From: a virus
Taxonomy: Duplodnaviria > Heunggongvirae > Uroviricota > Caudoviricetes
Reading direction: 5' to 3' (one strand)
Length of the DNA stretch: 42,122 bases
Virus record (IMG/VR): IMGVR_UViG_2541047913_000004
The translations under genes were made by a program, and so were the position numbers. The notes beneath the pieces are model-generated. The model had not been told where the DNA came from and searched no databases. It worked only from the letters and a program-made list of their open reading frames with translations. This document shows positions 1 to 42,122 of this stretch, one piece after another. The first letter of the stretch is position 1. The number at the start of each line of letters is the position of its first letter.

Positions 1-1164
1 TTACGCCTTCTTTATATCCTCCATAATTCCACAGTGGGACATATTTGGGACATTATCACCAAAAATGTCGTCTATTTTCCTTGCATGCTCTGTCAAATGA
101 TTAGGCGCAAGGTGAGCATACCTACGAACCATTTCTATGGACTCCCATCCGCCCATTTCCTGAAGCACAGATAATGGGACGCCTGACTGGATCAGCCAGC
201 TTGCCCAGGTGTGTCTGAGGTCATGGAAACGGAAATCTTCAATTCCTGCACGACGACAAGCTGATAGCCATGATGTCTTGCTGTCGATGCGCATCTTCCT
301 GACCGCAGGCGTTGATGTTCCATCTGCTCGCTTAGCCGCCTTGGTATGTACAAACACCCATTTGTGATGCTTGCCTATTTGATCACGCAACACTTTACAG
401 GCGGTATCGTTCAGCGCCACACCAATGGCGCGGTTTGATTTGCTCTCTTCTGGATTCACCCAGGCAACTCGTCGCTGCATGTCGATTTGTTGCCATTCCA
501 GATTTATGATGTTCGACTTTCTCAGACCAGTTGCCAGCGCAAACTTGACGACAGATTTCAGTGGTTCGGGGCACTCATCAATAAGGCGTTTTGCTTCCTC
601 CTTTTCCAGCCATCTGACTCGCTTGTTTCTGACCGCTGGTATCTTGATGACAGGCGCTTTTTCCAGCCACTTCCAGTCGCGTTCTGCAGCACGGAGAATG
701 GCCTTTATCATGGCAAGATGCTTTGCCTTTGTCTGAGTTGATACTGGCTTTGGTTCATAAACAGGCGGTTCTTTACCTTTCCTGATGGCGGCCTGAACTT
801 TCTGTTTCCATATTTCTTTCGTCTTTCTGTTATGCATTCTGCTTACAGCAGAGTAAATCTTTGCCTCCGAGATATCTTTAAGCCTTATACCCTCAAAATG
901 TTCAAGCCAAAACTCAATCCGGCTTTTATCTGAATCGAGAGATTTTTTATCAGCTTTTTCCTCAAGCCATCTTAGGCAGGCCTCTTCAAAAGTGACATCA
1001 GGTAAATCCCCTAGCTTTTCTACTCGCCAGAGTTCTGCTTTTCGCTTGTCGTGCAACTCCTGAGCTTGCCGCTTGTCCTTTGTGCCAAGAGATTCCTTAA
1101 TTCGTTTCCCGCCCGGGAGCGAATACGAGGCATACCATATTTCATTTCTGCGGAAGAGTGACAT
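1..1164 (-). CDS. int: Tyrosine-type site-specific recombinase (prophage integrase), 387 aa
   Basis: Full ORF with ATG at 1162-1164 preceded by a GAGGA Shine-Dalgarno; N-terminal arm-binding-like region; C-terminal catalytic region ends ...HDLRHTWAS...VLQEMGGW...VRRYAHL, the tyrosine-recombinase R/H-x-x-R/Y signature. Sits at the prophage end as expected for int. Confidence 0.93.
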
Positions 1165-1391
1165 TTTCTTTCCTCTGTTATGCCATCACCCGCGCTCACC
1201 TGGACAGTATGCAGCGGAGACTGAAGCGCCGCAATGCAAGCTTGCCGTGTTGTGAGGTAAGGAGATTTTGGCTTGGTTGGATCTTTACGTGTTGCCTGTA
1301 GGCGGCCTGTTCGTATCCAGTTGGTGGCGGTTGGTCTGGATATCTTAAGAAACTGACAGGCCTCATCGAGTGTGAGGCTGTATGGCTCCAT
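1020..1391 (-). CDS. xis: Excisionase / AlpA-like DNA-binding protein (recombination directionality factor)
   Basis: Internal Met of ORF 1020-1475 ([31 protein letters not shown]...) is translationally coupled to the upstream gene by a TAATG overlap at 1391; HTH region typical of AlpA/Xis. The C-terminal extent is uncertain: the ORF runs 145 nt into int in another frame. Confidence 0.6.
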
Positions 1392-1696
1392 TATTTCACC
1401 TCTTGCTGTGTCATTGTTGAAAAATGGATACCAGCTCGTTGCTGCCAGACGATCCAACCGAGAGTCATATCCCATGCCATGTATTCGTTATCGCCGTTTT
1501 TTGCTCTCCGACGATCTACTAAGTCACCGAAACGCTTTTCCATGAATAATTCATAGGCTTCGCGTTCATCTGGCTCTACTTCCAGAGATACGAGTGCGAT
1601 TTCATAAGCACGGCGCTCAATATCGTCTCGAACCTCTAGGCTGCTGATTCGTTCTTTGATTTCTTTAATCAGTTCTTTATTGGTAAATGTGGTCAT
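1391..1696 (-). CDS. yfdT: Early-left operon protein, YfdT-like, 101 aa
   Basis: ORF coupled by stop/start overlap to neighbours on both sides; length and order match the CPS-53 (KplE1) yfdPQRST cluster as I recall it. Function unknown. Confidence 0.6.
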   Translation of the reverse strand: MTTFTNKELIKEIKERISSLEVRDDIERRAYEIALVSLEVEPDEREAYELFMEKRFGDLVDRRRAKNGDNEYMAWDMTLGWIVWQQRAGIHFSTMTQQEVK

Positions 1697-2058
1697 TATG
1701 CTCCAGCCTCCGGTGCTTTTGGCATTACTGCCCAGTGAGTGATATTGACGTTTTCAAGGTCCCCGACCTGAAATGTCCACTGCCATTCTCCGGTTTCTTT
1801 TTGTCCCCAGGTGTACCAGAGAGAACGCCAGCCAATCAGCCAGCCTTCTCCATTAGCATCAAATAACAGAACACTTTCATTTGCTGGTGGCAGTTCAGCT
1901 GACACTGGTATTATTTTGTTTTCCAGTGCCGCACATTTAGCTTCAAGCGCGTCGAATTTACGTACCAGGTACTCAGCATTTGTTTCGTTCACTTTCAGAT
2001 CTCGCGGTACACATTTCCCGCGAAGAAACCCTTCCATTTCGAAAACATTCATGCGCAT
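1696..2058 (-). CDS. yfdS: Early-left operon protein, YfdS-like, 120 aa
   Basis: ORF overlapping the upstream gene stop by 10 nt and the downstream start by 1 nt; length and position match CPS-53 yfdS. Confidence 0.6.
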   Translation of the reverse strand: MRMNVFEMEGFLRGKCVPRDLKVNETNAEYLVRKFDALEAKCAALENKIIPVSAELPPANESVLLFDANGEGWLIGWRSLWYTWGQKETGEWQWTFQVGDLENVNITHWAVMPKAPEAGA

Positions 2059-2585
2059 TTGCGTAACTCCGATAAATCGTTAAAACGTTCCATAAACATC
2101 CCGTAGGCATGACCCGGTGCCAGTGGAATCACGTTGAACATCTCTGTTGCCGGGATGCCTTCCAGTACAGGCCAGAAAGAGCCATCATCAAGCCCGAGAT
2201 CGCGGCGTTCGGTTGCCAGCATGATGAGATCGGCATATTTCACGGGTGTACTCATAACTGGGGGTAACCCGTATTTCTCACGGATTACGGCGTCTATTTT
2301 TTCTTCCATCCGTTTATAGTCAGGAAGAAGGCGTTTCAGTGGTGCGGGGATGTCCTGGCAATACGCTTCTGTTGCATCATGCATTAACGCTTCAAAAGCA
2401 AATTCCTGCGGCACCAGCTGGCTGCAAAGAACCGCATGTTGGGCGACGCTGTAGAAGTGCGAAAGATGACCGGCAAAGCGACAGATATTTGAAAGGGAAA
2501 CCGCGATATCGTTAATATCGATGTCGTCTTTATTTATCTTGTCATAATAAAAATGCTTCCCGGAAAAAGTTTTAATAAATGACAT
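2049..2585 (-). CDS. yfdR: HD-domain phosphohydrolase (5'-deoxynucleotidase-like), YfdR-like, 178 aa
   Basis: HD-superfamily motifs (...AQHAV... and ...LMHDATEAY...). Start moved to the internal Met (MSFIK...), which has a GGAG Shine-Dalgarno about 7 nt upstream; this gives 178 aa, the CPS-53 YfdR length. Confidence 0.8.
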   Translation of the reverse strand: MSFIKTFSGKHFYYDKINKDDIDINDIAVSLSNICRFAGHLSHFYSVAQHAVLCSQLVPQEFAFEALMHDATEAYCQDIPAPLKRLLPDYKRMEEKIDAVIREKYGLPPVMSTPVKYADLIMLATERRDLGLDDGSFWPVLEGIPATEMFNVIPLAPGHAYGMFMERFNDLSELRKCA

Positions 2586-2712
2586 TTTGTTCTCCACGTA
2601 TATGCACTGCACCGCGCTGAATTCTGGTAAAAGGATGCCCTCACCATCCGGTGATTATTGAGTTAATTACGTTTCCATAAATGCCCCCGCAGGGGCATTT
2701 GCAGTAATGAAA

Positions 2713-3537
2713 TCAGGCGGTGAAAGTACCAATAAAGGTTTCTACTTTGCTGTCTTTGAATTTCTCAACAAGCAGATCACGAAATTCGTTAGCCATTTCT
2801 TCCTGCACCGCTTCCAGCTGAATAATGCGCAGAACCAGTACAGGACGATCGCCAGTGATAATGCTGAGGCGTAATTTAAACGGACGTTCTTTCAGACCTT
2901 CAAACGGAACGCATTTAAATTCAAATGCCACTGGCATAATGTCTTTGGTCTTCGCTTCGACAGACTCCATCAGGGAGCGTTTGCCGCTGAAGTCATTATC
3001 TTCAAAATCAGCGGTCTGGTTCGCTTCAATTGTGATTTTACGGATCGCCGCAGCCGCTTTGGTTGCCTGAATGGCGTCACCATTAGCATCAAAGCCCACA
3101 AGGTAGTCGGCCCAGTCTTCAATCCATTCTGCCAGTGACTTCTGGGAGTTACGCTCGCCGTTAACAGACAACAGGGCAGAGAACGGTGCTGTCTTTTTCA
3201 GTTTGAGAGTGGCGGTGTTATCTGCGTGACCTGGTTCATCAATAGTACCCAGGTTAAGCACACTGACGGCTCGCATATTATCGGCATCGATAAAGCAGCG
3301 GGTGCCTTCATCTGCAAGATCTTTAGAATAACGGGTAAAGTCATCGATGCTGGCAGTGGAAAGCGCACCACGGAAACGGAAGCGATTTAAATTAAATTTT
3401 TCCAGATCATGAATGCGGAAATTCTCAGGCAATGCCACAGCATCGGCACCAATCTTACTGATAATTTCATTAACACCCTGAGCAGAAATAAGGGCATGGA
3501 TTTGATTAATTGCGGTTGCGTCTAAGTTCTGAGACAT
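2713..3537 (-). CDS. yfdQ: DUF2303-family prophage protein, YfdQ-like, 274 aa
   Basis: Long clean ORF with ATG at 3535-3537; length and position match CPS-53 yfdQ. Confidence 0.75.
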
Positions 3538-6130: not shown

Positions 6131-6369
6131 CAGAACACTTTCAATTTTTAACCACAGAACGATGAGGCTAATCGTGGGTAAGCATCACTGGAAAATAGAA
6201 AAACAGCCTGAGTGGTACGTGAAAGCTGTCAGAAAAACTATCGCGGCGTTGCCGGGTGGTTACGCTGAAGCGGCTGATTGGCTCGATGTAACAGAAAACG
6301 CTTTATTCAACCGCCTGAACCGCCCCGGGAATCCTGGAGACTAAACTTCCTGAGAAAGAGGTAAACAGG

Positions 6370-6696
6370 ATGACTAAAAATACTCGTTTTTCCCCCGAAG
6401 TCCGTCAACGGGCAGTCCGTATGGTTCTGGAAAGTCAGAGCGAATATGACTCACAATGGGCGACAATTTGTTCCATTGCTCCAAAGATTGGCTGTACGCC
6501 GGAGACTCTGCGTGTCTGGGTTCGCCAGCATGAGCGGGATACCGGGGGCGGTGATGGAGGGCTCACCACCGCTGAACGTCAGCGTCTGAAAGAGCTGGAA
6601 CGTGAAAATCGTGAACTGCGCCGCAGTAACGATATCCTTCGCCAGGCTTCCGCTTATTTTGCGAAGGCGGAGTTCGACCGCCTCTGGAAAAAATGA
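6370..6696 (+). CDS. IS629 OrfA (transposase N-terminal HTH protein), 108 aa
   Basis: HTH and leucine-zipper-like sequence typical of IS3-family OrfA; ends in an A6 run (6688-6693) that overlaps the orfB start. Confidence 0.9.
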
Positions 6697-7583
6697 TGCC
6701 ACTGCTGGATAAGCTGCGTGAGCAGTACGGGGTCGGACCGCTATGCAGCGAACTGCATATTGCCCCGTCAACGTATTACCACTGTCAGCAACAGCGACAT
6801 CATCCTGATAAACGCAGTGCCCGTGCGCAGCGCGATGACTGGCTGAAGAAAGAGATACAGCGCGTATACGATGAAAATCACAAGGTATACGGTGTGCGTA
6901 AAGTCTGGCGTCAGTTGTTACGGGAAGGTATCAGAGTGGCCAGATGCACTGTGGCACGTCTCATGGCGGTTATGGGACTTGCCGGTGTTCTCCGGGGTAA
7001 AAAGGTCCGTACGACCATCAGCCGGAAAGCCGTTGCCGCAGGCGACCGCGTAAACCGTCAGTTCGTGGCAGAACGACCTGACCAGCTGTGGGTGGCTGAT
7101 TTTACTTACGTCAGCACATGGCGGGGCTTCGTCTATGTGGCGTTCATCATTGATGTGTTTGCCGGATACATCGTGGGGTGGCGGGTCTCATCGTCCATGG
7201 AAACGACATTCGTGCTGGATGCACTGGAGCAGGCGTTATGGGCCCGTCGACCGTCCGGCACGGTCCATCACAGTGATAAAGGTTCTCAGTATGTATCGCT
7301 GGCCTACACACAGCGGCTTAAGGAAGCCGGATTACTGGCATCAACAGGAAGTACAGGCGACTCGTATGACAACGCGATGGCGGAGAGCATCAATGGTCTT
7401 TACAAAGCGGAGGTAATACACCGTAAGAGCTGGAAAAACCGTGCAGAAGTGGAACTGGCCACACTCACGTGGGTGGACTGGTATAACAATCGACGATTGC
7501 TGGAAAGGCTGGGCCATACTCCTCCGGCAGAAGCAGAAAAAGCTTATTATGCTTCCATCGGAAACGATGATCTGGCAGCCTGA
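6693..7583 (+). CDS. IS629 OrfB (DDE transposase catalytic domain), 296 aa
   Basis: DDE/RNase H-fold integrase-like region (...WVADFTYV... ...HSDKGSQY... ...DNAMAES...). Lies in the -1 frame relative to orfA, so an OrfAB fusion by -1 frameshifting at the A6 run is expected. Confidence 0.9.
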
Positions 7584-8034
7584 GTTCACAGATAAAACAC
7601 TCTCCAGGAAACCCGGGGCGGTTCAGCCTTCGTGCAGATGGCGATCAGATTTTCCCGCTGGGATGGGCAATGGTTTTACAGCGTGCTGGTGGCACTCACT
7701 TCATTGCTGATGCTGTGGCGCAGTCTGCAAATGGCGTCTTTGTGTCTCTTCCTGACGTCGAGGATGTGGACAACGCCGATATTAACCAGCGCCTGCTGGA
7801 AGTCATTGAACAGATCGGCAGTTATTCAAAACAGATTCGTTCAGCAATTGAAGACGGTGTAGTGGAACCGCATGAGAAGACAGCAATTAACGACGAGCTG
7901 TACCTCTCAATTTCGAAGCTGCAGGAGCATGCAGCACTGGTCTACAAAATTTTTTGCATTTCAGAAAGTAATGACGCCCGCGAGTGTGCAGCTCCGGGCG
8001 CCGTGGCGTGTCGTGACTGTGGAGAAACTAACGC

Positions 8035-8393
8035 ATGAACAGTTTAACAACACACTACCGTCGCTCGCAACTGATTGCGCTTCCTGTACCGGGTGGAAAA
8101 GCGAAGGTGGAGTATTGCTATGCAGTAAATGTACCAGGTGACAGGGAAATTGTAACCCACAGCTTTGCAGAGTGGGCTGTGGGTGATTTCAACCGGCAGA
8201 AGGAGACAGTCCTTTGCGACAAGTTAACCGCTGGTTCAAAGATCACTACGGAGTGCCCGTCAGAGTCATTCGTTGGGAGCCGGAAACACAACGTGTTATC
8301 TACCTCCGCGAAGGCTATGAGCATGAGTGCTTCAGCCCGCTCGAACAGTTTCGTCGTAAATTCAGGGAAATAGAGGTCGGTCATGAGCACTAA
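8035..8393 (+). pseudogene. Hypothetical phage gene with apparent frameshift (two-frame ORF)
   Basis: Frame A (ATG 8035) looks protein-like for about 60 codons and then degenerates. Frame B opens at 8187, has no ATG, and encodes a plausible ...[47 protein letters not shown]... tail ending at 8393. Consistent with a 1-nt indel near 8190-8225 or a sequencing error. Confidence 0.4.
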
Positions 8394-11196: not shown

Positions 11197-12006
11197 ATGA
11201 ATAATCTGATGGTCATTGATGGTATTGAAGTTCGTCGTGATGCTTATGGGCGTTACAGCCTGAACGATCTGCATCGCGCAGCAGTAGCATCTGGTGCAAA
11301 TGCCAGAACCAAGGAGCCGGGAAAGTTTCTTTCCAGCCAACAAACTGTTGAGCTTGTTCATGAATTGACCAACACCCAGAATTTGGGTGTTGACCCGGTG
11401 AGTGTGATTCATGGGGGAAATGAACGGGGAACGTATGTCTGCAAGGAACTGGTGTATGCCTATGCAATGTGGATCAGCCCGTCATTCCATCTGAAGGTGA
11501 TCCGTACTTTCGATATGGTAACCAGCGCACCGGAAAAATTATCCGGACAGGCTGCTGACAAGATGCAGGCTGGCGTGATCCTGCTGGACTTTATGCGCCG
11601 GGAGTTAAACCTGTCTAACTCTTCAGTGCTTGGTGCCTGTCAGAAACTCCAGGAGGCTGTTGGCTTACCGAATCTGGCACCGCGCTATGCCATTGATGCT
11701 CCTGCTGATGCACACGATGGCTCAAGTCGCCCGACACTGTCACTGAGTGCACTGCTGAAACAGTATGGTATACGCCTGACGGCTAATCAGGCATATCACC
11801 AGATGGTGAAACTGGGGATCGTCGAGCAGCGCGAACGATACAGCCGTACAGCGATTAACAACATCAAAAAATTCTGGTCGCTGACAGCGAAAGGTTGCAT
11901 GTTCGGCAAGAACATCACCAGTCCCGCAAATCCGCGCGAGACACAGCCGCATTTCTTCGAATCCCGATTCCCTGAGCTGTTAAAGCTGCTCGATACCGTT
12001 CATTGA
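11197..12006 (+). CDS. KilA-N domain protein, 269 aa
   Basis: Start at the internal Met (MNNLMVIDGIEV...) with an AGGAG Shine-Dalgarno upstream; N-terminal KilA-N-like domain. Confidence 0.7.
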   Translation: MNNLMVIDGIEVRRDAYGRYSLNDLHRAAVASGANARTKEPGKFLSSQQTVELVHELTNTQNLGVDPVSVIHGGNERGTYVCKELVYAYAMWISPSFHLKVIRTFDMVTSAPEKLSGQAADKMQAGVILLDFMRRELNLSNSSVLGACQKLQEAVGLPNLAPRYAIDAPADAHDGSSRPTLSLSALLKQYGIRLTANQAYHQMVKLGIVEQRERYSRTAINNIKKFWSLTAKGCMFGKNITSPANPRETQPHFFESRFPELLKLLDTVH

Positions 12007-12007
12007 G

Positions 12008-13003
12008 GTGACCGTGAGAGCACTACTGACCCCTGAAATTGCCCCGCGTATGGGGATCGTATTGTTCAGGCCAGGTTCAGAGCTGATGCCCCTGTTTATG
12101 CAGGGGCGTGTCCTGCTGGAGCCTGAGCCGGAGCGTTATTCATCTTTCGCCAGTGGTGCCGTTCCGGCGGCATCACAACCGCTGGCGGATGATCCTGCCG
12201 TTCGGGCCGTGTTCCGCAATGAGGCAGTGATCCGTCGTGCTGGTGGCGTGGAATGTCTTGAAAGCTGGTTACTTCGTGAAAAAGGCTGCCAGTGGCCTCA
12301 TTCCGACTGGCACAGCGAGAACATGACCACAATGCGACACGCTCCGGGTGCAATCCGTCTGTGCTGGCACTGCGATAACCAGCTGCGCGATCAGTTCACG
12401 GAACGGCTGGAATCAATGGCAACGGATAACTGTGCCCGCTGGGTGTTGTCTGTTGTGCGTCGGGATCTCGGTTTTGATGACAGTCACGTTGTGACAATGC
12501 CGGAACTGTGCTGGTGGCTGATTCGTAATGATCTGGCGGATGCCTTACCGGAAAGTGCAGCCCGTAAGGCACTGAGATTACCGAAGCCTGTTGTGCCGTC
12601 TGTTACCCGGGAAAGTGACCTTGTGCCTTCGGTTCCTGCCACCAGCATCATCCAGGATAAGGCGAAAAAGGTGCTGGCGCTGAAAGTGGATCCGGAGTCG
12701 CCGGAGTCTTTTATGTTACGCCCAAAACGTCGCCGCTGGGTTAATGAAAAGTACACGCGCTGGGTTAAGACACAGCCGTGTGCATGTTGTGGAAAGCCAG
12801 CTGATGATCCGCATCATCTGATAGGCCATGGTCAGGGTGGAATGGGTACAAAAGCGCATGACCTTTTTGTGCTGCCTTTGTGCAGAAAACACCACGACGA
12901 ACTGCATGCGGATACCGTGGCATTTGAAGAGAAGTATGGCTCCCAGCTGGAGCTGATATTTCGTTTTATCGATCGCGCACTGGCGATTGGTGTGCTGGCC
13001 TGA
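12008..13003 (+). CDS. DUF968-family protein (YdfU-like) with C-terminal Cys/His nuclease-like motif, 331 aa
   Basis: GTG start 2 nt after the upstream stop; C-terminal ...[21 protein letters not shown]...[10 protein letters not shown]... suggests an HNH-like zinc-binding module. Confidence 0.65.
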
Positions 13004-13020
13004 TTTTGTGGAGAAAGTTA

Positions 13021-13404
13021 ATGCGTGATATTCAGATGGTTCTTGAACGTTGGGGAGCGTGGGCGGCTAATAATCATGAAGATGTGACCTGGTCGTCCAT
13101 TGCCGCCGGTTTTAAGGGATTAATTCCTTCAAAAGTAAAATCTCGCCCGCAATGTTGTGACGATGACGCGATGATTATTTGCGGGTGCATGGCCCGTCTG
13201 AAAAAGAACAACAGCGATTTGCACGATTTATTAGTAGATTATTATGTAGTCGGTATGACATTCATGTCACTGGCAGGTAAGCATTGCTGCTCTGATGGTT
13301 ATATCGGGAAAAGGTTACAGAAGGCTGAGGGCATAATTGAAGGGATGTTAATGGCATTAGATATCCGGTTAGAGATGGATATCGTTGTTAATAACTCTAA
13401 TTAA
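13021..13404 (+). CDS. quuD: Late-gene antiterminator Q (QuuD-type), 127 aa
   Basis: Start at the internal Met ([24 protein letters not shown]...); Cys-rich motif [16 protein letters not shown]; position immediately before the late-operon leader and lysis genes. Confidence 0.8.
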
Positions 13405-13437
13405 TATGCCAATTGTTTACTGAAAGTTATTAAAAAT

Positions 13438-13455
13438 GGGGCGTTGCAACGCCCC
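13438..13455 (-). terminator. Minus-strand intrinsic terminator downstream of nmpC (possible 3' end of an IpeX-like 3'UTR sRNA)
   Basis: Perfect palindrome GGGGCGTTGCAACGCCCC followed on the minus strand by AUUUUUAAU and on the plus strand by CAAAAAU, so it is orientation-specific for the minus strand, about 140 nt past the nmpC stop. Confidence 0.45.
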
Positions 13456-13543
13456 CAAAAATAAAGGGTAATATATAACAGAAGGTTTATATAGTTAGAA
13501 GCAAGGTTGTGCTCCTAAAGGAAGTGGCTTGAGGGAGCCACTT

Positions 13544-13583
13544 ATATGTTGGGGAGGCAACGCCTCCCGCAACATATCTTTTT
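13544..13583 (+). terminator. Plus-strand intrinsic terminator after Q (tR'-like)
   Basis: 14-bp stem (13544-13557 / 13563-13577, one bulged G) with a 5-nt loop, followed by CUUUUUCG on the plus strand only; about 140 nt downstream of the Q stop. Confidence 0.45.
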
Positions 13584-13593
13584 CGTAATCAGA

Positions 13594-14691
13594 TTAGAAC
13601 TGGTAAACCAGACCTACAGCAACGATGTCATCAGTGCTTACACCGAGTGCTTTAGTGAAGTCATTTTTGTCAAGCAGGTTGATTTTGTAATCAACGAAAG
13701 TAGACATATTTTTGTTGAAGTAATAGGTTGCACCTACATCAACATATTTGACTAAGTCCTGATCGCCCCATACTCCAAGATCCTTACCTTTAGATTGCAG
13801 GTAAGCAACGGACGGACGCAGACCGAAATCGAACTGATATTGTGCAACAGCTTCGAAGTTTTGAGCTTTATTAGCAACGAAGTGATCAGCAAATACAGTC
13901 ATATTCTGGGTTTCAGAATAGGTAGTGGCCAGGTAAATGTTGTTAGCGTCATATTTCAGACCTGCGGCCCAAACTTCTGCATTTTTACCGGAAGCAAATA
14001 CTTCAGGAAGAACTTTCCCTGCATTAACTTGAGTGTCGGTACGATCAGATTTCGCATAAGTTGCACCGATACCGAATCCTTCGTATTCATAGGTAGCAGA
14101 GAAACCGAAGCCATCACCGTTACCTTCGGTGTAGTTATCGAAATCGCTACGATCGTTTTTGCCTTGGTACTGAGCAGCAAAGTTCAGACCATCAACCAGA
14201 CCAAAGAAGTCGTTGTTACGATAGGTTGCAACACCAGTGGTGCGACCAGTCATGAACACATCTGTTTGGGTCCAGGTATCGCCACCGAATTCTGGCAGAA
14301 CGTCAGTCCACGCACCGATGTCGTATGCTACACCGTAGTTACGGCCGTAATCGATTGAGCCGTAGTCACCGAATTTCAGGCCTGCAAATGCAAGACGGGT
14401 TTTGTCTTTGGAGGAACCTTGAGATTCAGCGCGGTTGCCTTTGAATTCATATTCCCACTGACCGAAACCAGTCAGCTGATCGTTGATTTGGGTTTCGCCT
14501 TTGAAGCCCAGACGAACATAAGTAGTATCACCATCATCTGCATCGTTAGAGGAAAAGTAGTGCTTGGCATTAACTTTCCCGTACAGATCCAGCTTGTTAC
14601 TGTCTTTATTATAAATTTCAGCTGCCTGAGCAGACATCGCCATCAGTACTGATGCAGCTACAGCAGAAATTGCCACTGTTAATTTTTTCAT
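13594..14691 (-). CDS. nmpC: Outer-membrane porin NmpC/Lc (OmpC/OmpF family), 365 aa
   Basis: Signal peptide ([23 protein letters not shown]), porin beta-barrel pattern and C-terminal ...VGLVYQF; intact, with no IS5 interruption. Confidence 0.9.
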
Positions 14692-15279
14692 CGTGAGCCC
14701 TTTTTTTTGAACTATTATTAAAAAATGATGTCACTGCGCGATAAATATTCATCTAATCAATGTGATTATTTCAAGATGTAAGTTTTAGTTTCTCATTTAA
14801 TTTGTGAAGTAGATCTCTATTTTTATCTGAACTTTTTCTATCGAAACCTATTTATGGCTCTTATTTGAACAAAAATAAATCTATTAGCTAATTTATATTA
14901 ATGGCTGTTATTTATGGTGGTTCTATAATTCGTCTGTTTAATTTAAACCGGCTAAAAATAACACTGGAAATTATTTATTGGTTATTTGTTGAGGTTTTCT
15001 TATGTATTTGTGGTGATGTTTTGAACACTCGGTAGCATTCTCATAAATATCATTCAGTGGTTTACGTACGTAAAAAATTGGTTATGCTGTTAAGAGTGGT
15101 TACTTCGTCACACAGCTTAAACCCGCCGTCGAGCTGGTTTTTCCATTTTTTGAGTCTCGATATTAGCTGATAACTCAATACCTGAGTTATTCACTGACTC
15201 GGAGTCAGTTACGTTTCTGCTTTTTTGCGATACGTTGTATTCCCTCAATTTACACCCGCTTTGTCTGCGAGGTGGGGTT

Positions 15280-15495
15280 ATGAAATTCATGGATAAGTTA
15301 ACAACTGGAGTCGCCTATGGCACCTCAGCAGGTAGTGCCGGTTACTGGTTTTTACAGCTGCTCGATAAAGTCACTCCCTCACAGTGGGCAGCAATAGGTG
15401 TGCTGGGTAGCCTGGTATTTGGCCTGCTGACGTACCTGACAAACCTTTATTTCAAGATTAAAGAAGATAAGCGCAAGGCTGCGAGAGGTGAATAA
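15280..15495 (+). CDS. essD: Class II holin (S21/EssD-type pinholin) with dual-start motif, 71 aa
   Basis: MKFMDK... gives Met1 and Met4 starts; two transmembrane segments; stop overlaps the endolysin start (TAATG). Confidence 0.85.
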
Positions 15496-15992
15496 TGCCT
15501 CCATCATTACGAAAAGCCGTTGCTGCTGCTATTGGTGGCGGAGCAATTGCTATAGCATCAGTGTTAATCACTGGCCCAAGTGGTAACGATGGTCTGGAAG
15601 GTGTCAGCTACATACCATACAAAGATATTGTTGGTGTATGGACTGTATGTCACGGACACACCGGAAAAGACATCATGCTCGGTAAAACGTATACCAAAGC
15701 AGAATGCAAAGCACTCTTGAATAAAGACCTTGCCACTGTCGCCAGACAAATTAACCCGTATATCAAAGTCGATATACCGGAAACAACGCGCGGCGCTCTT
15801 TACTCATTCGTTTACAATGTGGGTGCTGGCAATTTTAGAACATCGACGCTTCTTCGCAAAATAAACCAGGGCGATATCAAAGGCGCATGTGATCAGCTGC
15901 GTCGCTGGACATACGCTGGCGGTAAGCAATGGAAAGGCCTGATGACTCGTCGTGAGATTGAGCGTGAAGTCTGTTTGTGGGGGCAACAGTGA
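15495..15992 (+). CDS. rrrD: SAR endolysin (R21-type lysozyme), 165 aa
   Basis: N-terminal Gly/Ala-rich signal-anchor-release segment ([20 protein letters not shown]) followed by a lysozyme domain. Confidence 0.9.
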
Positions 15993-16450
15993 GCAGAGTA
16001 ACCGCGATTATATCCGCTCTGATTATCTGCATCATCGTCAGCCTGTCATGGGCGGTCAATCATTACCGTGATAACGCAATCGCCTACAAAGCCCAGCGCG
16101 ACAAAAATGCCAGAGAACTGAAGCTAGCGAACGCGGCAATTACTGACATGCAGATGCGTCAGCGTGATGTTGCTGCGCTCGATGCAAAATACACGAAGGA
16201 GTTAGCTGATGCGAAAGCTGAAAATGATGCTCTGCGTGATGATGTTGCCGCTGGTCGTCGTCGGTTGCACATCAAAGCAGTCTGTCAGTCAGTGCGTGAA
16301 GCCACCACGGCCTCCGGCGTGGATAATGCAGCCTCCCCCCGACTGGCAGACACCGCTGAACGGGATTATTTCACCCTCAGAGAGAGGCTGATCACTATGC
16401 AAAAACAACTGGAAGGAACCCAGAAGTATATTAATGAGCAGTGCAGATAG
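15989..16450 (+). CDS. rz: Rz i-spanin, 153 aa
   Basis: GTG start ([17 protein letters not shown]...), N-terminal transmembrane segment, coiled-coil periplasmic domain; near-identical to lambda Rz as I recall it. Confidence 0.8.
16209..16391 (+). CDS. rz1: Rz1 o-spanin lipoprotein, embedded in the +1 frame of Rz, 60 aa
   Basis: Lipobox ...VVVGC and a Pro-rich mature region; lies wholly inside Rz in another frame, the classic Rz/Rz1 arrangement. Confidence 0.75.
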
Positions 16451-16481
16451 AGCTGACCATATCGATGGGCAACTCATGCAA

Positions 16482-16775
16482 TTATTTTGAGCAATACACA
16501 CGCGCTTCCAGCGGAGTATAAATGCCTAAAGTAATAAAACCGAGCAATCCATTTACGAATGTTTGCTGGGTTTCTGTTTTAACAACATTTTCTGCGCCGC
16601 CACAAATTTTGGCTGCATCGACAGTTTTCTTCTGCCCAATTCCAGAAACGAAGAAATGATGGGTGATGGTTTCCTTTGGTGCTACTGCTGTCTGTTTGTT
16701 TTGAACAGTAAACGTCTGTTGAGCACATCCTGTAATAAGCAGGGCCAGCGCAGTAGCGAGTAGCATTTTTTTCAT
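16482..16775 (-). CDS. bor: Bor lipoprotein (serum-resistance moron), 97 aa
   Basis: Signal peptide with lipobox (LLITGC); 97 aa; same position and strand as lambda bor. Confidence 0.85.
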   Translation of the reverse strand: MKKMLLATALALLITGCAQQTFTVQNKQTAVAPKETITHHFFVSGIGQKKTVDAAKICGGAENVVKTETQQTFVNGLLGFITLGIYTPLEARVYCSK

Positions 16776-17065
16776 GGTGTTATTCCCGATGCTTTTTGAA
16801 GTTCGCAGAATCGTATGTGTAGAAAATTAAACAAACCCTAAACAATGAGTTGAAATTTCATATTGTTAATATTTATTAATGTATGTCAGGTGCGATGAAT
16901 CGTCATTGTATTCCCGGATTAACTATGTCCACAGCCCTGACGGGGAACTTCTCTGCGGGAGTGTCCGGGAATAATTAAAAACGATGCACACAGGGTTTAG
17001 CGCGTACACGTATTGCATTATGCCAACGCCCCGGTGCTGACACGGAAGAAACCGGACGTTATGAT

Positions 17066-41538: not shown

Positions 41539-42122
41539 TGGCATTCAGAATGAGTGAACAACCACGGACCATAAAAATTTATAATCTGCTGGCCGGAACT
41601 AATGAATTTATTGGTGAAGGTGACGCATATATTCCGCCTCATACAGGTCTGCCAGCAAACAGTACCGATATTGCACCGCCAGATATTCCGGCTGGCTTTG
41701 TGGCTGTTTTCAACAGTGATGAGGCATCGTGGCATCTCGTTGAAGACCATCGGGGTAAAACCGTCTATGACGTGGCTTCCGGCGACGCGTTATTTATTTC
41801 TGAACTCGGCTCATTACCGGAAAATGTCACCTGGTTATCCCCGGAAGGGGAGTTTCAGAAGTGGAACGGCACAACCTGGGTGAAAGATGCAGAAGCAGAA
41901 AAACTGTTCCGGATCCGGGAGGCGGAAGAAACAAAAAACAGCCTGATGCAGGTAGCCAGTGAGCATATTGCGCCACTTCAGGATGCTGCAGATCTGGAAA
42001 TCGCAACGGAGGGAGAAACCTCGTTGCTGGAAGCCTGGAAAAAGTATCGGGTGTTGCTGAACCGTGTTGATACATCAACTGCACCTGATATTGAGTGGCC
42101 TACGAACCCTGTCAGGGAGTAA
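41538..42122 (+). CDS. tfa: Tail fibre assembly protein Tfa, 194 aa
   Basis: 194 aa, coupled by TAATG to stf; lambda Tfa-like; its stop codon is the last 3 nt of the window. Confidence 0.9.

Follow-up and report, generated by a model that had tools for sequence, protein, structure and literature searches.

A probable Q-nmpC-ipeX-pR'-S module of the DLP12/PA-2 type, with an intact porin gene between Q and the predicted late promoter of a lambdoid prophage

Introduction

In lambda, the late promoter pR' is located just after the antiterminator gene Q. In the Stx phages (933W, Sakai Sp5 and the H-19B type), pR' and the Q stop codon overlap, and tRNAs and stx are carried as cargo in the late transcript, after pR'. 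The pR' start in Sakai has been mapped by dRNA-seq and the tR' 3' end by Term-seq, 258 nt apart, and the promoter is constitutive. A fragment of the DLP12 lysis-operon promoter (-121 to +650) has been used as a reporter in K-12, in work that cites Q control of the operon.

The K-12 prophage DLP12 (qsr') has the gene order quuD, ipeX, nmpC, essD, rrrD, rzpD and bor, as does the locus described here; its attachment site, argU next to fimZ, is also that of a strain with an identical module. A 2006 study of IpeX reportedly found that lysogens of PA-2 make the porin Lc and lose OmpC. Reviews support this in outline; in one of them, IpeX is described as a 167-nt DLP12 RNA, a product of the porin promoter contained within the porin transcript, and the RNA has been placed on PA-2 as well. 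According to the literature, IpeX lowers the synthesis of OmpC and OmpF, and its RNA has been detected by RT-qPCR in clinical isolates, among which the levels vary little. IpeX resembles other 3'-UTR-derived small RNAs of enterobacteria in being a regulatory RNA that derives from an mRNA 3' end; however, it differs from the typical Hfq-dependent members in that a review reports its action on ompC without evident base pairing and one source describes it as Hfq-independent, whereas other papers describe it as Hfq-dependent. NmpC itself is considered the E. coli counterpart of Salmonella OmpD.

Cargo at the same site is also known from phages with a related Q, namely SfII, PhiR55_1 and phiP27, in which the inserted genes are followed, as here, by the same pR' block and the late genes. 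In these phages, however, the cargo is unrelated to nmpC: two minus-strand genes in SfII and one minus-strand gene in PhiR55_1, both encoding uncharacterised proteins, and a GIY-YIG nuclease on the plus strand in phiP27.

Results

Layout of the module

The window, that is, the whole stretch of DNA analysed, is the 42,122-nt Caudoviricetes record IMGVR_UViG_2541047913_000004, in which the locus at 13405-15279 was studied. The prophage spans int to the tail-fibre genes and is colinear with the inducible phage PhiR29_1. Many E. coli chromosomes carry the 2.5-kb module at 100% identity, and PhiR29_1 carries it at 99.9%; its features are therefore not due to chance. Sequence identity, gene integrity and the hairpins are direct observations here, and all of the features listed in a preliminary description of the locus were recovered where they had been placed, with shifts of a few bases at most. 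The region is read as the usual Q-nmpC-ipeX-pR'-S module, here in a lambdoid prophage of the DLP12/PA-2 type that has not decayed, with a probability of roughly 80%; judged by sequence comparison, this architecture is already known from DLP12, PA-2 and many sequenced lambdoid phages. An IS3-family element breaks the early-right operon of the prophage, and Q and late transcription may therefore be non-inducible in this copy. The left part of the module consists of Q and, on the opposite strand, the porin gene with its upstream region:

13021 (ATG)-13404 (stop), plus strand: Q antiterminator of the QuuD type, 127 aa (Phage_antitermQ, PF06530, full length, E 8.5e-54)
13594-14691, minus strand: intact nmpC/lc porin gene, 365 aa, with a signal peptide of 23 residues (Porin_1, full length, E 1.8e-156)
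14692-15059, minus strand: AT-rich nmpC promoter/regulatory region, the promoter being predicted (composition, weak promoter candidates)

Q, named quuD by PGAP in identical RefSeq genomes, is 79% identical to the Q of Stx phages on sequence comparison and distantly related to the Q21 structures PDB 6P18 and 6JNX (E 7.6e-8); its domain, and the fact that it closely resembles a Q whose site of action is known, place it in the 933W/DLP12 QuuD type. Downstream, on the same strand, lie the predicted cognate late promoter/qut block, then hairpins and the holin gene. The late promoter does not directly adjoin Q here: the Q stop codon (13404) and the -35 hexamer beginning at 15061 are 1656 bp apart, and the nmpC-ipeX unit occupies the gap.

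The porin gene had been described as intact, 365 codons long, of the NmpC/Lc kind and opposite to Q, and this description holds in full. Residues 29-365 align with Porin_1 profile positions 1-337 of 337, the frame is uninterrupted, and 362 of the 365 residues (99.2%) are identical to PA-2 Lc and likewise to K-12 NmpC rejoined across IS5. OmpC and OmpK36 are the nearest solved structures, aligned over residues 24-365. On the strength of these matches, the product is NmpC/Lc, a full-length 16-strand general-diffusion porin, and its ORF and signal peptide are also intact in identical genomes and in most related phages examined. The IS5 disruption of the K-12 DLP12 copy, cited in the same description, is confirmed by the MG1655 RefSeq annotation; there IS5 lies in nmpC after codon 346 and the structural genes have been lost, whereas nmpC is intact here.

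The spacer between the porin and holin genes (14692-15279) measures 588 bp, in agreement with the first estimate of about 590 bp of AT-rich DNA, although it is only partly AT-rich: GC is 23-32% over 14700-15100 and climbs to 37-47% near the holin. Comparison of phage records confines the AT-rich upstream region to nmpC-bearing phages. A low-threshold scan places weak nmpC promoter candidates at 14794-14765 and 14774-14744, and a CRP site that is marked in the PA-2 record corresponds to about 14800-14820 of the window. As a candidate moron, the unit has a terminator, is present or absent among relatives, shows low GC upstream and has a weakly predicted promoter.

The spacer between Q and nmpC

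The 189 bp between Q and the porin gene carry hairpin terminators, as predicted from the folds and U-runs, on both strands:

13416-13421, plus strand: GTTTAC at the left boundary of the insert, possibly left over from the pR' -35 region (aligned to the 3' ends of Stx-phage Q genes)
13427-13593, minus strand: nmpC 3' untranslated region, the IpeX locus, about 162-167 nt (~98% identity to the K-12 DLP12 spacer)
13432-13455, minus strand: predicted intrinsic terminator of the nmpC-ipeX transcript, GGGGCGUUGCAACGCCCC then A UUUUU (terminator scan)
13544-13583, plus strand: hairpin followed by CUUUUU, candidate terminator of the Q transcript (folding)

The spacer is ~98% identical to the quuD-nmpC spacer of K-12 DLP12, 97.4% identical to that downstream of lc in PA-2 (GenBank J02580; the comparison covers 2.8 kb, the whole of PA-2 on record) and 92.6-100% identical across 36 phage records including PA-2; it is present in 2503 of 5426 complete E. 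coli genomes. Among phage records, only these 36 contain it, and each of them also spans the complete nmpC-holin spacer; the Stx-phage and SfII loci that were examined lack it. Such a distribution is consistent with a spacer that travels with nmpC.

An IpeX-like locus had been proposed for the nmpC 3' untranslated region, and the identity to the K-12 and PA-2 spacers bears this out. The region lies directly 3' of the nmpC stop codon (13594), on the same strand and before the Q stop codon (13404); 162-167 nt separate the nmpC stop codon from the U-run, against an RNA of 167 nt in the literature, with a Rho-independent terminator at the end. Assigned by described position and size together with the K-12 and PA-2 identity, and with its ends taken from reviews, the 3' untranslated region is, by homology, the already known ipeX locus. 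It folds into four hairpins plus the terminator at -62.4 kcal/mol (z -8.0 versus shuffles). The minus-strand terminator, which had been expected about 140 nt past the stop codon, begins with its stem at 138 nt (13455-13438) and ends with a U-run to 13432, 162 nt past the stop codon, with a fold of -13.9 kcal/mol; across eight homologous loci, the loop changes but the stem is constant. These eight IpeX loci average 96% identity, and their few changes are uninformative for covariation. A lenient scan of 13560-13800 yields a single weak minus-strand promoter candidate (8/12 matches).

A search with Rfam 15 over 12000-17000, with E up to 1, returned no IpeX or StxS family but only a chance snoRNA match, and at the gathering threshold over the whole window only the ALIL pseudoknot and IS009 were returned, both unrelated. 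Rfam appears to be without an IpeX model, so a missing family match is no evidence against IpeX membership. Similarly, an ipeX feature is absent from the MG1655 RefSeq annotation, and no annotation lies under the spacer match in 11 of 11 full-length examples among the matches listed. Among species-representative genomes outside E. coli, the first stem-loop of IpeX was not found, save on one short contig of a Streptomyces assembly, which is probably contamination.

The plus-strand hairpin (13544-13578) has 15 pairs and one bulge (-21.3 kcal/mol, z -5.95) and is followed by CUUUUU to 13583; owing to the bulge, it escaped a simple terminator scan. Its minus strand is the first stem-loop of IpeX. 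The preliminary description had placed a hairpin with a U-run after Q and likened it to tR'; the hairpin and the U-run are present, but their identity as tR' is unlikely, given that a pR' or qut homolog is absent upstream within 13405-13593. The hairpin is probably the terminator of the Q (early-right) transcript.

The late promoter, the leader and the lysis genes

The right part of the module contains the presumed late control elements and the first lysis genes:

15061-15088, plus strand: predicted late promoter pR', TTTACG-16 nt-TATGCT (alignment to annotated Stx-phage pR')
15089-15120, plus strand: initially transcribed block, GTTAAGAGTGGTTACTTCGTCACACAGCTTAA, presumed Q-engagement/pause element (qut) (single copy, conservation)
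15119-15150, plus strand: first leader hairpin with U-runs, AACCCGCCGTCGAGCTGGTTTTTCCATTTTTT, candidate tR' (alignment, folding)
15193-15236, plus strand: second leader hairpin, ACTGACTCGGAGTCAGT, then a U-rich tract, second tR' candidate (folding)
15252-15277, plus strand: stem-loop just before the dual-start holin gene (Met1, Met4) (folding)
15280-15495, plus strand: S21-type pinholin (Pfam P21 holin S, PF04971)
15495-15992, plus strand: SAR-type endolysin (Pfam PF00959)

The -35 and -10 hexamers of pR' are weak (8/12 matches). The homology of the promoter block is observed directly: it aligns with the annotated pR' of the Stx phages 06-3462 and Ss-VASD, and window positions 15060-15142 match the Q-end/pR' region in hundreds of Stx phages. 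The block at 15061-15145 has a single copy in the window and does not vary among eight nmpC modules. Within it, the initially transcribed block at 15089-15120, which would serve as qut, occurs once in the window against 0 occurrences expected by chance, and it is near-invariant among this phage, the Stx phages and SfII, with diverging flanks. Together with the Q family, the -35 and the first leader hairpin are homologous between the Stx phages and this locus; in contrast, this locus lacks the 258-nt StxS leader with its tR', and its own leader measures only 186 nt. A consensus promoter scan returned nothing in 13300-15400; it misses the homologous pR' too and is not decisive, and a scan at a lower threshold was used in its place.

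The transcription start was placed by counting 258 nt back from the Sakai Sp5 tR' to the aligned AAGAG (window 15093-15095), because the coordinates in the StxS paper differ from the current RefSeq version. Since the block is homologous to the mapped Stx pR', occurs as a single copy in the window and is invariant in the eight modules, the most likely start of late transcription is near 15094, which leaves 186 nt to the holin gene. The hexamer GTTTAC, which opens the pR' block at 15060-15065, recurs at 13416-13421; being a match of 6 nt, this only hints that part of the pR' -35 region persists at the left boundary of the insert.

The two leader hairpins vary among relatives. The first is annotated as a 'possible rho-independent terminator' in phage 06-3462 and is weakened here by a G-to-T change, to -6.5 kcal/mol compared with -12.0 kcal/mol for the GCGGG form; K-12 DLP12 differs from this locus in having this stronger GCGGG hairpin and in missing 15 nt of the holin leader. 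The second has no U-run directly after its stem, and the U-tract that follows has been lost from K-12 and phage Chlobot. PA-2 shares both variants of the present leader, GCTGG in the first hairpin and CGGAGTCAG in the second. By analogy, the stem-loop at 15252-15277 may have a regulatory role; at the homologous gene, the 434B record gives starts for an S71 antiholin and an S68 holin. The lysis genes are named essD and rrrD in identical genomes, and the 434B record lists a class II holin and a SAR endolysin.

Discussion

The insert would be a reverse-oriented moron of ~1.64 kb (~13422-15059), placed between Q and Q's own late promoter, and its cargo unit would comprise the AT-rich promoter region, nmpC/lc and a structured 3' untranslated region of ~165 nt with its own terminator. 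We infer its expression, the processing of its RNA, the repression of other porins and the function of each terminator. In a lysogen, the unit would be transcribed leftward from its own promoter to yield the NmpC/Lc porin, as publications on PA-2 and DLP12 suggest, and the 3' tail of the nmpC mRNA would be, or would be processed into, IpeX, which would lower OmpC and OmpF synthesis, such that the major porins are swapped. Rightward early transcripts would be halted past Q by the hairpin at 13544-13583, thereby avoiding both a collision with nmpC transcription and a Q-independent reach to the lysis genes. At pR', Q would engage RNA polymerase and enable it to pass the leader hairpins (15119-15150 and 15193-15236) and enter the lysis and structural genes; by homology, late transcription that starts at pR' would never enter nmpC.

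The preliminary description had instead supposed that late transcripts read about 1.9 kb, largely antisense through nmpC, to reach the lysis genes, which is unlikely in view of the sole copy of the pR' block at 15061-15145, downstream of nmpC. In its complete form, this alternative would have the late promoter just after Q as in lambda, with the hairpin at 13544-13583 as tR' and a Q-modified polymerase crossing nmpC to the holin gene. The pR' of Stx phages does adjoin Q, a strong plus-strand terminator stands 140-180 nt past the Q stop codon, resembling the lambda pR'-tR' spacing, and GTTTAC, which resembles the -35 region of pR', lies 12 nt past the stop codon; however, the sequence that follows this hexamer leads directly to the nmpC terminator, and no suitably spaced -10 is present. 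The spacer also holds promoter candidates (TTGCAA-19-TAATAT and GTAATA-16-TATAGT), but all sigma-70 candidates in 13405-13540 are weak, with 8/12 matches and either poor spacing or a poor -35. Moreover, the pR'/initially transcribed block is missing from 13405-13593, the phage records show the spacer together with nmpC, the Stx-phage and SfII loci examined do not contain it, and other phages likewise hold cargo between Q and the pR' block, all of which makes a promoter directly after Q very improbable. A variant that keeps pR' at 15061-15088, with induced pR transcripts passing 13544-13583, through antitermination or leakage, and crossing nmpC antisense to shut off porin and IpeX in the lytic cycle, is also unlikely, if less so. 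The terminator at 13544-13583 is intrinsic and open to bypass by any N-like antitermination, the convergent orientation allows collision or antisense effects, and the 3' end of the Q transcript would overlap IpeX by ~150 nt. The hairpin is, however, a strong one, and the immunity-region ORFs tested against PHROGs include no N-like gene; they match a repressor, Cro-like and CII-like proteins, and proteins of unknown function.

Returning to a late promoter downstream of nmpC and a halt after Q, a separate question is whether the porin unit is active in its host. The upstream region, at 23-32% GC, would be of the kind that H-NS usually silences. The title of a cited 1998 paper calls nmpC "quiescent" in E. 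coli B, and the small differences in IpeX level among clinical isolates also fit a silent unit, with little or no IpeX and no lysogenic-conversion phenotype. Such silence is a real possibility but the less probable outcome: against it stand the making of Lc and loss of OmpC that are said to mark PA-2 lysogens, the ipeX RNA measurable in clinical isolates, and an ORF and signal peptide kept intact in relatives.

The convergent arrangement also permits a more speculative proposal. The Q transcript (ending at 13583) and the nmpC-ipeX transcript (ending at ~13432) would share ~150 nt of perfect complementarity and might form an antisense control loop, an idea drawn only from the positions of the terminators and one that we regard as improbable. 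If it were true, abundant nmpC-ipeX RNA in the lysogen would pair with stray Q mRNA and lead to its cleavage, keeping the lysis genes more firmly silent; once the phage is induced, IpeX and nmpC mRNA would be destroyed by heavy transcription of Q, and IpeX would gain a second, phage-directed role beside porin control.

For this phage family, the module means that the late promoter need not adjoin Q. The cargo sits upstream of pR', on the other strand and under its own control, unlike stx downstream of pR', and models of prophage cargo expression should place pR' by homology and not by position. Carried by nearly half of the complete E. coli genomes searched and unannotated in the examples listed, ipeX is a regulator of two major porins that routine annotation misses. 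Where it is expressed, the porin unit would alter the porins displayed by the host and thus bear on phage receptor availability and antibiotic entry.

Organization of the Q–porin–lysis module

The preliminary description had placed Q, spacer hairpins, an intact porin, an AT-rich stretch and a holin in this part of the genome, and that inventory proved accurate when open reading frames (ORFs), Pfam matches and terminators were compared with it.

Features of the Q–porin–lysis module (window positions)
13021 (ATG)–13404, plus strand: Q, 127 aa, matched over its full length by Pfam Phage_antitermQ
Directly after Q: Q–porin spacer, 189 bp
13455–13438, minus strand: stem of the spacer terminator, then A UUUUU
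13544–13578, plus strand: strong spacer hairpin, then CUUUUU (−21.3 kcal/mol, z −5.95)
13594–14691, minus strand: porin gene (nmpC/lc), 365 aa, frame unbroken, Porin_1 E 1.8e-156
Between porin and holin: spacer, 588 bp, GC dropping to 23–32% across 14700–15100
15280–15495, plus strand: S21-type holin (Pfam)
15495–15992, plus strand: endolysin (Pfam)

Two short plus-strand ORFs in the module look spurious: one of 44 aa (14901–15035) in the AT-rich region upstream of the porin, entered as a hypothetical protein in the record of the temperate phage PhiR29_1, and one of 69 aa (13546–13755), a hypothetical protein in the PA-2 ("ORF1") and 434B records, which begins inside the plus-strand hairpin and overlaps the 3' part of nmpC in antisense.

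Probable position of the late promoter

A lambda layout, with Q, the late promoter pR' and the terminator tR' in succession, had been proposed for this module, along with late transcripts that read antisense through nmpC; the conserved pR' block sits instead past nmpC, at 15060–15142, and with this homology downstream of the porin the proposed transcription model is most likely wrong. With the nmpC–holin spacer as the query, 15060–15142 matches 355 phage records, mostly Shiga-toxin (Stx) phages, in which the match coincides with the end of a Q gene whose product is 79% identical to the window Q. The aligned bases are annotated as late promoter pR' in phage 06-3462 and Shigella phage Ss-VASD, followed in the former by a "possible rho-independent terminator". 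Shared in the alignment with the Stx-phage pR' region are TTTACG (−35), a −10 region, the near-invariant TAAGAGTGGTTAC(T/A)T(C/T)G(C/T)CAC and a hairpin, AACCCGCCG...GC(G/T)GGTTTTT.

In the Stx phages of strain Sakai, dRNA-seq and Term-seq mapped the pR' start and, 258 nt downstream, the 3' end of tR'; the start is described as "closely associated with Q" (PMC7547250). Counting back from the U-run of the Sp5 tR' reaches AAGAG, 5–7 nt past the −10, for which the window equivalent is 15093–15095. The block occurs in exactly one copy in the window (chance expectation, none), is invariant across eight nmpC-bearing modules and remains recognisable in SfII. The Stx-phage and SfII loci examined lack anything equivalent to the Q–nmpC spacer, which in the phage collection is confined to 36 records, all of them also covering the complete nmpC–holin spacer. 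In K-12 studies, a lysis-operon fragment from −121 to +650 serves as a promoter, and Q control of the operon is cited. Judged from sequence, late transcription probably starts about 186 nt upstream of the holin and never traverses nmpC; the probability is put at roughly 85%, because the placement of pR' is based on homology and not on transcripts of this phage.

The plus-strand hairpin at 13544–13583, initially called tR'-like, is unlikely to be tR' because the promoter block is missing upstream and the spacer offers only two weak sigma-70-like candidates (8/12 matches, with poor spacing or a poor −35). On the plus strand, this hairpin would act as a terminator for rightward early transcripts beyond Q, and on the minus strand it may form the first stem-loop of IpeX, the small RNA from the nmpC 3' untranslated region; it would not halt the porin transcript, since it is without a U-run on that strand. 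Some antisense transcription of nmpC could occur if early transcripts undergo antitermination in this phage; no N-like gene was recognised among the immunity-region ORFs tested. Antisense control between the overlapping 3' ends of Q and nmpC–ipeX is a speculative and improbable notion.

The 1986 GenBank record of PA-2 lists two CRP-binding sites, mapping to window positions ~14800–14820 and ~15096–15116; the second lies within the conserved initially transcribed pR' block (GTGGTTACTTCGTCACAC), ~400 bp from the porin start, and the record's linking of this site to porin control looks questionable.

The porin and IpeX

The reading of the porin as an intact NmpC/Lc holds, with 362 of 365 residues identical to PA-2 Lc and likewise to K-12 NmpC once both IS5-flanking fragments are joined. 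IpeX is described as a 167-nt RNA of DLP12, the cryptic K-12 prophage, that is transcribed from the phage porin promoter within the porin transcript and then processed; it is reported to reduce OmpC and OmpF, and one review assigns it to PA-2 as well. The 2006 abstract of Castillo-Keller, Vuong and Misra (J Bacteriol 188:576) reportedly locates ipeX between the nmpC stop and the terminator, and is said to note that the sequence following lc in PA-2 is identical and that IpeX shows no simple complementarity to ompC, in substantial agreement with these descriptions.

An IpeX-like 3' untranslated region was likewise correctly recognised in the window, where the spacer is ~98% identical to the K-12 quuD–nmpC spacer (92.6–100% across 36 phage records, PA-2 included), and the terminator U-run lies 162–167 nt beyond the nmpC stop codon, counted from the first base past it, against the published 167. 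The predicted fold of this stretch comprises four hairpins and the terminator (−62.4 kcal/mol, compared with −33.3 in shuffles; z −8.0). Of 5426 complete E. coli genomes, 2503 contain the spacer; among the 11 full-length examples listed, nothing is annotated beneath the match, and no Rfam family matches the ipeX locus (12000–17000 searched, E up to 1). A scan of species-representative genomes with the first IpeX stem-loop returned E. coli only, bar one exact match in an assembly of Streptomyces alkaliterrae, on a contig of 442 bp (NZ_VJYK02000722.1) that is almost certainly contaminating E. coli DNA. The proposed porin/IpeX identity is right, yet already known as textbook DLP12/PA-2 biology. 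One paper calls nmpC "quiescent" in E. coli B in its title; given that report and the AT-rich upstream region, nmpC may be silent in this copy.

The holin leader

The stretch from the predicted late start to the holin contains two hairpins, both of them candidates for tR'. The first (15119–15150) has its canonical form in K-12-type sequences, at −12.0 kcal/mol and followed by U-runs, and carries a G-to-T mismatch in the window and PA-2 (−6.5 kcal/mol); positions 15132–15136 read GCTGG in the window, PA-2 and ev099, whereas K-12 has GCGGG, as do five other loci; the change to GCTGG halves the predicted stability. The second (15193–15236) is stronger in the window than in K-12, which, like phage Chlobot, is without 15 nt including the U-tract after this hairpin. 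These variants could alter basal read-through into the lysis genes. Directly ahead of the holin start (region 15252–15290) is a nine-pair stem-loop, and the holin frame offers a second start at Met4 besides Met1; the 434B record gives these as antiholin S71 and holin S68, an arrangement resembling the dual starts that control S21 and lambda S.

Relatives, state and probable insertion site

Many E. coli chromosomes carry a 100% identical copy of the 2.5-kb module, with its genes named quuD, porin, essD and rrrD by PGAP, and PhiR29_1 has the module at 99.9% identity. The entire window, integrase through tail-fibre assembly gene, is colinear with PhiR29_1 except for a 1.3-kb insertion at ~6317–7625. 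In a strain with the identical module, the prophage occupies the tRNA-Arg gene beside fimZ, which is the attachment site of DLP12. Together, these comparisons identify the window as an undecayed relative of DLP12. At its right end, within the tail-fibre assembly region, Rfam RF02111 (IS009) matches at full length (41881–42079, plus strand, 225.7 bits).

The insertion is an IS3-family element (6317–7625, 1.31 kb; end sequence TGAACCGCCCCGGGAATCCTGGAGAC) with overlapping transposase ORFs (6370–6696 and 6693–7583) and an ALIL frameshift pseudoknot (6651–6767). It splits the cII-like ymfL gene of the early-right operon into N-terminal (6162–6344) and C-terminal (7670–8038) remnants and is absent from PhiR29_1 and strain 2012EL-2448. 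The element may be polar on the replication genes and Q, and this prophage may therefore be incapable of the late programme and non-inducible.

Homology to Stx-phage Q dwindles around the last Q codons, and the hexamer that opens the pR' block, GTTTAC, occurs both at 13416–13421, 12 nt past the Q stop, and at 15060–15065; this pair may be microhomology or a short duplication from an insertion event, or, being a 6-nt match, could be chance. Between the two copies, the terminator, IpeX, nmpC and its AT-rich upstream region form a compact unit, organized in the classic manner of autonomous phage cargo genes. Cargo unrelated to nmpC lies between related Q proteins and the same pR' block in three further phages, namely two minus-strand genes of unknown function in SfII (L014, 2767–5308; Q identity 43%), one minus-strand gene in PhiR55_1 (L020, 1540–2582) and a plus-strand GIY-YIG nuclease in phiP27 (L021, 764–2560). 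The Q/pR' junction looks like a recurrent insertion site.
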